Position numbers and translations under genes: made by a program
Virus record (IMG/VR): IMGVR_UViG_2718218139_000011
DNA: 45,230 nucleotides
Source: a virus
Lineage: Duplodnaviria > Heunggongvirae > Uroviricota > Caudoviricetes
Direction: 5' to 3' (one strand)
Part shown: in pieces, positions 42,513 through 43,116 of the stretch
Numbering within the stretch: position 1 is the first letter of the stretch
Layout: every line of letters starts with the position of its first letter
Notes under the pieces: model-generated
What the model was told of the DNA's origin: nothing
What the model saw: the letters and a program-made list of their open reading frames with translations, nothing else
Database searches by the model: none

Positions 42513-42570
42513 TTTCTGGTGACGTTTGGCGGTATCAGTTTTACTCCGTGACTGCTCTGCCGCCCTTTTT
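42513..42570 (+). ncRNA. dicF: DicF small RNA
   Basis: TTTCTGGTGACGTTTGGCGGTATCAGTTTTACTCCGTGACTGCTCTGCCGCCCTTTTT matches my recollection of K-12 DicF, ending in a hairpin plus T-run. Confidence 0.8.
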
Positions 42571-42739
42571 AAAGTGAATTTTGTGATGCGGTGAATGCGG
42601 CTAAGCGCACGCGGAACAGTTAAAACCAAAAACAGTGTTATGGGTGGATTCTCTGTATCCGGCGTTAATTGTTAACTGGTTAACGTCATCTGGAGGCACC
42701 AGGCACCGCATCACAAAATTCATTGTTGAGGACGCGATA

Positions 42740-42928
42740 ATGGAAACGTTATTACCAAACGTTAATACGTCTGAAGGTTGTTTTGAAATTGGTGTTACTA
42801 TCAGTAACCCTGTATTTACTGAAGATGCCATTAACAAGAGAAAACACGAACGGGAGTTATTAAATAAAATATGCATTCTTTCAATGCTGGCCCGTTTACG
42901 TCCGATACAAAAAGGATGCTGGCAATGA
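42740..42928 (+). CDS. dicB: Cell division inhibitor DicB
   Basis: 62 aa METLLPNVNTSEGCFEIGVTISNPVFTEDAINKRK..., near-identical to recalled K-12 DicB; GAGG RBS. Confidence 0.85.
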   Translation: METLLPNVNTSEGCFEIGVTISNPVFTEDAINKRKHERELLNKICILSMLARLRPIQKGCWQ

Positions 42929-43116
42929 ATACAGCATTTGCACTTGTTCTGACAGTTTTTCTTGTTTCCGGAGAGCCAGTTGATATTGCTGTCAGTGTTC
43001 ACAGGACAATGCAGGAGTGTGTGACTGCAGCAACCGAACAGAAAATTCCCGGTAACTGTTACCCGGTCGATAAAGTTATTCACCAGGATAATAACGAAAT
43101 CCCGGCAGGTCTTTAA
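42925..43116 (+). CDS. ydfD: YdfD-like small membrane protein
   Basis: 63 aa MNTAFALVLTVFLVSGEPVDIAVSVHRTMQEC...; ATG overlaps the dicB stop (ATGA); recalled similarity to Qin YdfD. Confidence 0.65.
   Translation: MNTAFALVLTVFLVSGEPVDIAVSVHRTMQECVTAATEQKIPGNCYPVDKVIHQDNNEIPAGL

Follow-up and report, generated by a model that had tools for sequence, protein, structure and literature searches.

Is the dicF-dicB-ydfD module of this prophage a Qin-derived insert that an insertion sequence has silenced, or is it an intact and native part of its phage? A preliminary description of the window (the whole stretch of prophage DNA that was analysed, 45,230 nt) had placed a Qin-type module inside an otherwise lambda-like prophage. 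It took the module as a mark of mosaicism and considered that IS600 might have left the operon transcriptionally dead. Our analysis upholds the gene identities and the functions quoted in that description, and it overturns the readings of a mosaic insert and of IS600 silencing. We conclude that the window very probably carries an intact dicBF-type host-takeover module in the pL operon of a large lambdoid prophage family of E. coli and its relatives, of which Qin is a decayed member. The features discussed are listed in Table 1.

Table 1. Features of the dicF-dicB-ydfD region and its flanks, in window coordinates.
Feature	Position	Strand	Basis
Cro-like regulator, divergent from the repressor gene	39632-39874	-	Pfam P22_Cro
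Candidate right-hand operators, two copies of a 19-nt near-palindrome (TGTTTTAAAATCAAAACAT type)	39903-39967		repeats
cI/LexA-family prophage repressor, 212 aa, N-terminal helix-turn-helix and C-terminal S24 peptidase	39966-40604	+	Pfam, PHROG
Candidate left-hand operator(s) and leftward early promoter (pL/dicBp equivalent)	40671-40717	+	repeats D1, D3, I1, I2
Small zinc-ribbon ORF, ECs_2282 family, antisense to the operon	41028-41234	-	CxxC...CxxC motif
ydfC, 72 aa, first gene common to the window and the K-12 dicBF operon	41321-41539	+	K-12 alignment
633-bp block without K-12 counterpart	41560-42192		K-12 alignment break
DicF precursor leader, non-coding	42193-42512	+	K-12 alignment
dicF sRNA, 53 nt	42513-42565	+	Rfam RF00039, K-12 alignment
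dicF 3' stem-loop and U5 run, intrinsic terminator forming the DicF 3' end	42528-42570	+	Rfam structure line
Structured RNA in the dicF-dicB spacer (core 42582-42716, 135 nt)	42573-42724	+	folding, covariation
dicB, cell division inhibitor, 62 aa, common non-K-12 allele	42740-42928	+	Pfam DicB PF05358
ydfD, lysis protein of the DUF1482 family, 63 aa	42925-43116	+	Pfam PF07358
Putative terminator-like hairpin with T-rich tail, between ydfD and the exonuclease gene	43154-43177	+	consensus scan
YdfE-family exonuclease 5' remnant, 70 codons, cut by IS600	43210-43420	+	phrog_2082, YdfE_N
IS600 cluster, three pieces, extending past the window end	43421-45230		identity to annotated IS600
IS600 left-end fragment, 72 bp	43421-43492		exact-match comparison
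Complete IS600, 1264 bp, CAG flanking both sides	43493-44756	+	annotated copies
Inverted IS600 fragment (IS600 nt 403-876), running off the window	44757-45230		exact-match comparison

Identity of dicF, dicB and ydfD

We called dicF on a full-model score at or above the Rfam RF00039 gathering score of 48. The window scores 76.7 bits (E = 2.6e-15), with positions 42514-42565 (+) matching model positions 1-52 of 52. When the gene is compared with K-12 dicF (b1574), 53 of 53 bases are identical, the single-stranded 5' part that pairs with targets included. The surrounding 196 nt (42393-42588) show zero differences from K-12, and this identity extends to the RNase E site and the terminator. According to the Rfam structure line, 42528-42534 pair with 42558-42564, and TTTTT follows at 42566-42570. 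In K-12 the stem-loop acts as a terminator (PMC10448788, citing Faubladier 1990).

The DicF leader differs from K-12 at 10 of 320 nt (97% identity), with no difference in the last 120 nt. An RNase III site in the K-12 leader gives rise to a 190-nt DicF species, and an RNase E site to the 53-nt species (PMC10448788). If these processing sites are transferred to the window, a 190-nt species with its 3' end at 42565 would start near 42376.

Both proteins exceed their Pfam cut-offs: DicB matches PF05358 at 127.4 bits (E = 1.7e-37, profile positions 1-62 of 62; cut-off 27 bits), and YdfD matches DUF1482 (PF07358) at 88 bits (E = 3.7e-25; cut-off 25 bits). DicB is identical to the K-12 protein at 55 of 62 residues and YdfD at 59 of 63, the latter carrying four changes. 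The seven DicB changes are K2E, Q36H, V47L, L55P, M56I, P57Q and A61W, and four of the seven substitutions relative to the tested K-12 protein fall within the last 8 residues. The ydfD start overlaps the dicB stop (ATGA, 42925-42928), as it does in K-12. The matches of dicF, DicB and YdfD are far beyond chance, and the limits first proposed for the module, 42513 and 43116, coincide exactly with the dicF start and the ydfD stop codon.

DicB and YdfD of the window are identical to WP_000449192.1 and WP_001090200.1, respectively, as annotated in PEC240, and the same accessions appear in the O157:H7 Z1836 and ETEC4085 records. In a public collection, 27,932 blocks carry the exact DicB sequence; so widespread an identical allele appears to be a sign of selection rather than decay.

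K-12 work has shown that DicF represses ftsZ and metabolic mRNAs (PMC5069750, PMC10448788) and that DicB works via MinC and shuts ManYZ-dependent phage entry (PMC6832061). The functions first quoted for DicF and DicB are thus the published functions of the K-12 alleles (PMC6832061, PMC5069750, PMC10448788). K-12 YdfD binds IspG and causes division-dependent lysis (PMC8835842). By analogy with the K-12 proteins, the window DicB allele is predicted to bind MinC, block division and inhibit ManYZ, and the window YdfD is predicted to bind IspG and lyse cells in a division-dependent manner. The corresponding host genes (ftsZ, minC, manXYZ and ispG) lie beyond the window.

Place in the phage family

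Module matches occur in 4759 of 5426 complete E. coli genomes, at a median of 2 places per genome, and 3763 genomes have at least 80% of the module query covered. The module is also present in functional, plaque-forming temperate phages (Tritos, mEp460_ev081, PhiR42_1 and HannyBb), and copies of the dicF locus are known from CP-933 prophages (PMC5069750). It adjoins many different immunity regions and attachment sites. In every relative examined, however different these are, it lies between the immunity region and exonuclease-xis-int, which is the pL-operon position.

The conserved block is larger than had been noted. It stretches from ydfC (41321) into the YdfE-type gene, of which it includes the first 70 codons (43210-43420), at about 95% identity to Qin, and 42193-43420 is 95.0% identical to K-12. 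The Qin operon (K-12 ydfABC-dicF-dicB-ydfDE) has the same order of ydfC, dicF, dicB, ydfD and ydfE, with 95-96% nucleotide identity, an identical dicF and the shared dicB/ydfD overlap. In both, the exonuclease gene ydfE is cut by an insertion sequence, IS2 in K-12 and IS600 in the window. Beyond the operon, Qin matches the window in conserved order at the nohA side, rrrQ, essQ/ydfR and ydfU (73-89% identity). Because Qin is co-linear with the window elsewhere, it is best read as a deleted relative of this prophage type, and the module as the normal early-left arm of the phage group and not a foreign insert. This co-linearity, and the presence of the module in most E. coli genomes, are at odds with a mosaic, Qin-specific insertion.

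The window differs from Qin in several respects. Most of the prophage is retained, including head, tail, lysis and replication genes. ydfC is 95.8% identical to K-12 in nucleotides and at 69 of 72 residues, and matches phrog_1744; ydfA and ydfB are missing. A 28-bp match to the K-12 sequence just upstream of ydfA lies at 40851-40878. The additional 633 bp between ydfC and the dicF leader contain an ORF of 135 aa (41562-41969, +; phrog_1363) and a truncated antisense ORF of 55 aa (42012-42179, -), which matches phrog_10348 only over positions 1-37 of 77. This block is also found in ETEC4085, O157:H7 Z1836 and PEC240. The small ORF at 41028-41234 has weak zinc-ribbon Pfam matches, and its counterpart in ETEC4085 and PEC240 carries the annotation ECs_2282 family zinc-binding protein.

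Further parallels are the dicBF-bearing lambdoid prophages of EHEC and other E. coli (CP-933M/O/P and Sp-type) and phages mEp460_ev081 and Tritos. More than one dicF copy has been reported from such prophages (PMC5069750, PMC7873438). Like the window, they have the block of ydfC, 135-aa ORF and antisense ORF, lambda-type structural genes and, at the tail end, a gene for an EspF-repeat type III effector. Unlike them, the window joins the module to an immunity region with which it is paired in just 12 of 5426 complete genomes.

That immunity region encodes a 212-aa repressor (Pfam Peptidase_S24 50.5 bits, HTH_3 weak; phrog_4 transcriptional repressor, E = 1.6e-40), which is presumed to control the leftward early operon bearing dicF. 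Its sequence contains catalytic Ser (ESDSM) and Lys (IRKL) motifs and reads Ala-Ala at the Ala-Gly cleavage position of lambda cI. Since Ala-Ala replaces the usual LexA-type Ala-Gly, SOS induction is uncertain. Qin-type regulation would be recognised by a DicA-type repressor (135 aa, helix-turn-helix only), DicC and Rem encoded in the prophage. A tblastn search of the window with K-12 DicC, Rem, YdfA and YdfB returned nothing, and residues 7-71 of K-12 DicA align solely to the helix-turn-helix part of the 212-aa repressor (37% identity). The prophage therefore lacks the Qin-type DicA/DicC switch and the Rem antirepressor, so K-12 regulation and the known inducing signals are not directly transferable. 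With this copy under a LexA-family repressor rather than DicA/Rem, induction signals may differ from the K-12 model.

The Cro-like gene matches P22_Cro at 56.9 bits over residues 18-69 of the listed ORF 39632-39922, and the beginning of the domain suggests a start at 39874. Two copies of repeat family D1 (39903-39921 and 39949-39967) lie between the cro-like and repressor genes and are candidate operators. A third operator-like motif (40671-40689) and a weaker copy (40697-40716) flank TTGACC at 40689-40694. K-12 dicBp resembles lambda pL, and this candidate pL site lies just 3' of the repressor gene, the position of both (PMC10448788). The consensus promoter scan called nothing at 40689-40717, where the -10 hexamer CAAACT is weak; the leftward promoter and its operators are candidates proposed from the repeats only. 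From 40700 to dicF, the consensus scan called no + strand terminator-like site, and no convincing ORF for an N-type antiterminator was seen between the repressor and ydfC. K-12 transcripts end past dicF or past ydfD, and the putative hairpin at 43154-43177 agrees with the latter (PMC10448788).

IS600 enters at 43421, 305 bp 3' of the ydfD stop and within the next gene, where the alignment to K-12 and PEC240 stops (43420). Because of this position downstream of ydfD, IS600 cannot silence dicF or dicB, and the suspicion that it had left the operon transcriptionally dead does not hold. The complete element matches annotated IS600 elements over all of its 1264 bp with 100% identity and has the IS3-family features orfA (100 aa), orfB (272 aa) and HTH_Tnp_1 and rve domains. 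The exonuclease remnant covers phrog_2082 profile positions 1-71 of 823, with Pfam YdfE_N on the called gene; intact relatives have a YdfE-type exonuclease of 823-828 aa. IS600 thus removes the downstream recombination (exonuclease) gene and leaves dicF-dicB-ydfD untouched, and the excision genes were probably lost through it as well. By look-up of the 72-aa junction ORF, the ydfE'::IS600 junction is found in two assemblies only (GCA_003015325.1 and GCA_002486255.1). An exact scan of a species-representative genome collection gave 0 matches, and no best-matching complete E. coli genome had a match across it. Elsewhere in the window, a second IS600 (1295-2558) interrupts the side tail fibre gene.

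Proposed working of the module and alternative roles

Along the + strand, the order is repressor, candidate operators and promoter, ydfC, 135-aa ORF, leader, dicF with its terminator, spacer RNA, dicB/ydfD and truncated exonuclease gene. From K-12 experiments we infer the following course. In the lysogen, the 212-aa repressor would hold the operon mostly off, and loss of repression would yield a single long transcript. RNase III and RNase E would then release the 190-nt and 53-nt forms of DicF, both ending at the dicF terminator, and read-through past that terminator would supply dicB and ydfD. DicF with Hfq would block translation of ftsZ, manX, xylR and pykA and, in EHEC, activate pchA. DicB would bind MinC and deliver it via ZipA to the division ring, arresting division, and the DicB-MinC complex would disable ManYZ and so block DNA entry of lambda-like phages. 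YdfD would inhibit IspG, so that dividing cells lyse unless division is blocked.

Division arrest in the lytic cycle need not be what maintains the module. It is possible, though rather unlikely, that its main selected role is superinfection exclusion in the lysogen, with basal DicB blocking ManYZ-dependent entry and this benefit outweighing lytic division arrest. Defective prophages of most E. coli genomes do keep the module, and cells in which the operon is induced resist lambda and other phages that depend on ManYZ, an effect of DicB that requires MinC (PMC6832061). However, the published protection was obtained with the K-12 allele, not that of the window, and required Plac induction, and repressed dicBp yields little DicB (PMC10448788). 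The kil/kilR regions of Rac-type prophages and Stx phages (75/02 Stx, POCJ13, Rac-SA53) also speak against exclusion as the main role. Like the window, they have an early-left position, a dicF-like terminator hairpin (Rfam 34-41 bits, below the gathering score) and the same structured leader directly 5' of a small division-inhibitor gene, followed by an exonuclease gene. Unlike the window, they lack ydfD, and the downstream gene, kil (73-77 aa), is unrelated to DicB. That kil genes share the structured leader and the position points to a division-stopping role in the lytic cycle.

We think it very unlikely that the module is a silent relic of a decaying prophage, with genes intact only for want of time: the prophage is damaged by both IS600 copies, in the exonuclease and side tail fibre genes, the neighbouring antisense ORF (42012-42179) is truncated, and K-12 dicBp is tightly repressed in laboratory conditions (PMC10448788), but dicF and its 196-nt surroundings show no change from K-12, the dicB and ydfD ORFs are full length with both alleles widespread, and for the equally cryptic Qin copy of K-12 expression is known both in stationary phase and in about 1% of cells (PMC10448788).

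The spacer RNA between dicF and dicB

The spacer between dicF and dicB folds into a 21-bp closing helix (42573-42593 with 42704-42724) around three hairpins and a variable centre, with a folding z-score of -5.1. Its 3' end lies 3 nt before the dicB Shine-Dalgarno sequence GAGGA (42728-42732). That this is merely a loosely conserved linker, its structure reflecting shared ancestry and its likeness to the prophage sRNA family STnc100 reflecting chance, is a reading to which we give little credence. Most of the dicB-adjacent copies are more than 97% identical, as a linker would allow. However, RNAalifold on 18 hand-picked sequences (alignment A1) gave 34 pairs, of which 10 had compensatory, two-sided changes, and 97.5% of cells were paired. 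None of 500 shuffles attained the observed values; shuffled alignments had 3.5 +/- 1.4 compensatory pairs and slid controls 0-4. With 54 distinct sequences, 22 of the 34 pairs were compensatory (5-11 in slid controls) and 97.9% of cells were paired; fitting alignment A2 to the model biases it towards the proposed structure, a point in favour of the linker reading.

The Rfam STnc100 model (RF02076) scores 33.9 bits in the window, below its gathering score of 47 bits as the linker reading would have it, and 31-44 bits in seven related loci. Against that reading, a model that we built from spacer copies only (R1) finds the annotated, full-score STnc100 of the late region (29882-29998, -) at 54.9 bits. 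This is the only other strong match in 45 kb, and every helix is retained with different bases. The reciprocal match and the covariation agree on a shared structure. Judged from sequence, the spacer RNA is related to STnc100, and the window holds a second copy in its late region. The two have in common a closing helix, a small 5' hairpin, a variable centre, a long hairpin, a 5-bp hairpin with loop AGGCA, and the motifs GGUGAAU and GGAGGCACCnGGCACC, and both STnc100/PasD and the spacer RNA lie between cistrons of long phage operons. Unlike STnc100/PasD, the spacer RNA is without its own terminator and leads directly into the dicB ribosome-binding site. Published STnc100/PasD copies, in contrast, are late-region and near stx and esterase genes (PMC12370729; bioRxiv 10.64898/2026.05.13.724894). 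We found no published link between the dicF-dicB spacer RNA and STnc100.

Other identities were considered. R1 matches nothing across the whole HK022 genome, which removes a put-type antiterminator as a candidate. There is a resemblance to tRNA in a 7-bp helix stacked on the 5-bp hairpin; the conserved 3' CCA is absent, and ARAGORN called three true tRNAs, the spacer RNA not among them. Sigma factors reportedly bind at Salmonella STnc100 copies; as a sigma-54 promoter, the spacer RNA would have a GG-to-GC spacing one base off (read by eye).

The element recurs amid unrelated flanking sequence in P1, P7, D6 and Klebsiella phages, a further point against a simple linker. The gene that follows it is dicB in Qin-type prophages, kil in Rac-type prophages and Stx phages, and tciA/terB in P1, P7 and D6; in Klebsiella-type phages it precedes other small ORFs. 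D6 has three copies in one operon, and the two copies of the window are divided between its early-left and late operons. We tentatively propose, as a reading about which we are divided, that the spacer RNA represents an unrecognised early-operon branch of STnc100/PasD: a portable, inter-cistron element before small host-takeover or accessory genes that perhaps controls the next gene or acts as an sRNA. Such control might act on the processing, stability or translation of the following gene; RNase III, for instance, could enter at the 21-bp closing helix and so part DicF from the dicB mRNA. The other possibility is that the element is released and works as an independent sRNA.

The dicF-dicB-ydfD module itself is already known and commonplace, and it is ordinary because it is found in most E. 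coli genomes. Less to be expected is the conserved RNA fold in the dicF-dicB spacer. The window adds one more copy of a module known across E. coli prophages, with multiple copies per EHEC genome, and as such matters little. The EspF-repeat effector gene carried by this prophage suggests that the host is an attaching and effacing E. coli. In such strains DicF is linked to virulence control via pchA: EHEC has four dicF copies, and DicF activates pchA (PMC7873438). If the reading of the spacer RNA is correct, the poorly understood STnc100/PasD family would be tied to division-inhibitor expression in many temperate phages. It would also gain a genetically tractable context, because the K-12 dicF-dicB spacer has the same element.

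Identity and integrity of the module

The preliminary description placed a Qin-type dicF-dicB-ydfD module at 42513-43116, and Rfam, Pfam and alignment to K-12 confirm it. This range begins at the very first base of dicF and closes with the stop codon of ydfD, and the gene identities and published functions given for the module are right. In the Rfam search of the window, DicF matched the full RF00039 model (76.7 bits, gathering score 48, E = 2.6e-15). When the window was aligned to the Qin region of K-12, 42193-43420 matched K-12 1649062-1650288 at 95.0% identity and 41321-41559 matched ydfC at 95.8%, with 196 nt around dicF free of any difference. 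This alignment, proposed earlier as a check, left all 53 nt of dicF identical and 55 of the 62 DicB residues the same, the changes being K2E, Q36H, V47L, L55P, M56I, P57Q and A61W; YdfD differs at 4 of 63 residues. The window's DicB (WP_000449192.1) and YdfD (WP_001090200.1) are identical to the proteins annotated under these accessions in PEC240, and both accessions also occur in the O157:H7 Z1836 and ETEC4085 records.

The block shared with Qin exceeds the reported range: it opens with ydfC (41321) and reaches codon 70 of an exonuclease gene of YdfE type. K-12 lacks 633 bp which separate ydfC from the dicF leader in the window and hold two ORFs, one of 135 aa and one truncated and antisense; the same block is found in ETEC, O157:H7 and PEC240 prophages. 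A terminator-like hairpin lies 3' of ydfD at 43154.

Features of the window discussed in the text
Feature	Position	Strand	Remarks
Second complete IS600	1295-2558	+	identical to the 43493-44756 copy; CGG/CGG target duplication
Full-score STnc100	29851-30023	-	104.7 bits; late region, between TerB-like gene and nanS-p-type esterase gene
Prophage repressor, 212 aa	39966-40604	+	helix-turn-helix and S24 (LexA-type) peptidase domain; upstream of module
dicF sRNA	42513-42565	+	53 nt identical to K-12 dicF; Rfam RF00039 match at 42514-42565
Spacer structured RNA, 135 nt	within 42573-42724	+	folding, covariation
dicB	42740-42928	+	full-length DicB, Pfam 127.4 bits
ydfD	42925-43116	+	DUF1482/YdfD, Pfam 88 bits
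YdfE-type exonuclease gene, 5' remnant	43210-43420		70 codons; 823-828 aa in intact relatives
IS600 left-end copy, 72 bp	43421-43492		precedes complete IS600
Complete IS600	43493-44756		100% identical to annotated copies; CAG on either side
Inverted copy of IS600 nt 403-876	after 44756, past window end at 45230		

The concern that IS600 had left the operon transcriptionally dead does not hold. The element enters 305 bp downstream of ydfD, so dicF, dicB and ydfD cannot be severed from an upstream promoter. The nested arrangement at 43421-45230 suggests insertion of one IS600 into another or rearrangement between the two. Most of the exonuclease gene has been lost through IS600; in intact relatives it is followed by xis and int, neither of which is present in the window. 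The second IS600 interrupts the side tail fibre gene (ORF 2512-3735, minus strand) at its 3' end, shortening the gene's C-terminal domain match. Because of the damage to these two genes the prophage is defective, and the module is intact within it.

Structured RNA in the dicF-dicB spacer

The spacer folds with z = -5.1 against shuffled sequence and is closed by a 21-bp helix (42573-42593 with 42704-42724). Its Rfam score for STnc100 is below threshold, at 33.9 bits in the window and 31-44 bits in relatives. When a covariance model was built from spacer copies alone, the late-region STnc100 was the only other strong match in the window (54.9 bits), retaining every helix with different bases. 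In an alignment of 18 sequences, 10 of the 34 consensus pairs were changed on both sides, compared with 3.5 +/- 1.4 in shuffles (0/500) and 0-4 in slid controls. With viral contigs scanned as well, an alignment of 54 distinct copies gave compensatory changes at 22 of 34 pairs and 97.9% of cells paired, figures that are biased towards structure because this alignment was fitted to the covariance model. Judged from sequence, the spacer RNA belongs with the STnc100/PasD sRNA family and shows strong covariation. In the literature searched, STnc100 and PasD are described only in late regions, with no mention of dicF or dicB.

The element lies directly 5' of kil in Rac-type and Stx phages, of tciA/terB in P1, P7 and D6, and, in Klebsiella-type phages, of various other small ORFs. 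A single D6 operon contains three copies, the P1 record annotates a "dicF-like region" upstream, and in some cases a copy has a terminator of its own behind it. That the element is a put RNA was ruled out, as HK022 has no copy. Our leading guess, held loosely, is that the spacer RNA may control processing, stability or translation of the following gene.

In one Klebsiella-type relative (viral contig IMGVR_UViG_2767802142_000003, 1701-2108), dicB is replaced by a membrane-type ORF of 67 aa, which follows the structured leader and is itself followed by a YdfD-like 64-aa ORF. This replacement implies that ydfD can be paired with different upstream partners.

Repressor and proposed working of the operon

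K-12 DicA matched only the helix-turn-helix part of the 212-aa repressor (37%, tblastn), and tblastn with K-12 DicC, Rem, YdfA, YdfB, HokD and RelBE gave no match in the window. A P22-Cro-like gene, divergently oriented, and a YdaT-like gene adjoin the repressor gene. The stretch separating the repressor gene from the cro-like gene holds two copies of a 19-nt near-palindrome; a further copy lies just downstream of the repressor gene beside a TTGACC. We infer that these are candidate operators and that the TTGACC site is a putative equivalent of pL (dicBp, the operon promoter, in K-12); a consensus promoter scan called no promoter at this site. Both catalytic motifs of S24 peptidases, Ser and Lys, are present. 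The repressor reads Gln-Ala-Ala-Ser, compared with Gln-Ala-Gly-Met in lambda cI, where Ala-Gly is the self-cleavage site; since Ala-Ala replaces Ala-Gly, cleavage in the SOS response appears uncertain. In related genomes, gene callers annotate just the 112-aa C-terminal part.

From the repressor gene to ydfC, the window resembles Qin only in a 28-bp stretch, GTTCCGCTACCCCGGCGTTAAGGGGAAA (40851-40878, plus strand), with 27/28 positions identical to K-12 just upstream of ydfA. It contains a small CCCC/GGGG hairpin and could be a transcript-leader signal.

The proposed mechanism relies on experiments in K-12 and EHEC, and sequence identity is the ground for carrying it over to the window. Transcription would start at the pL-like promoter under the prophage repressor, and RNase III and RNase E would release 190-nt and 53-nt DicF species from a long transcript. 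In K-12, some dicBF transcripts stop at the dicF terminator and some after ydfD, with RNase III/RNase E processing (PMC10448788). The window's DicF would repress ftsZ, manX, xylR and pykA, targets established in published work (PMC5069750); in EHEC, whose strains have four dicF copies, DicF activates pchA under low oxygen (PMC7873438). DicB would halt division, which in published work follows from binding MinC, the same interaction blocking ManYZ-dependent phage DNA entry (PMC6832061). YdfD would lyse dividing cells; it is reported to bind IspG, and its lysis is prevented by DicB (PMC8835842).

Distribution and relation to Qin

A 1251-bp query (window 42180-43430) matched 4759 of 5426 complete E. 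coli genomes, with at least 80% of the query covered in 3763 and a median of 2 places per genome (maximum 10). It also matched 58 phage records, including Tritos, mEp460_ev081, PhiR42_1, HannyBb and PPompW prophages, the companions of Stx2a phages. Within the public collection, 27,932 blocks contain the exact DicB protein. It adjoins varied immunity regions (helix-turn-helix only, helix-turn-helix with S24, ParE/PaaA2), and its integration sites vary too: beside ompW, potC, rspB and yccA. Only 12 complete E. coli genomes have the module together with this window's immunity region, a pairing that is ordinary lambdoid mosaicism.

At the left edge of the window, an ORF at 1-753 (plus strand) runs past the end; its four proline-rich repeats of EspF type (Pfam EspF, 356.8 bits) identify a TccP/EspFU-like type III effector. 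This ORF marks an effector-carrying prophage from a lineage of attaching and effacing E. coli. The three tRNA genes of the window (Met-CAT type, Arg-TCG and Arg-TCT) have an AraC-family regulator gene upstream (31069-31782, minus strand) and a TerB-like gene related to P1 tciA downstream (30192-30695, minus strand), in the place of stxAB in Stx phages; the window prophage has no stx genes.

Further matches between Qin and the window follow one common order: the nohA side (89%), rrrQ (84.5%), essQ/ydfR (73%) and ydfU (83.5%). The window's structural genes (J, tape measure, major head, portal and large terminase) are lambda-like. A Qin module inside a lambda-like prophage, as the preliminary description had it, is therefore a false contrast, and the module does not serve as a mosaic marker, being very common and Qin being colinear with the window elsewhere too. 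Qin belongs to the same phage type and has undergone deletion. The module itself is already known and very common; only the spacer RNA and the non-DicA repressor are worth following.
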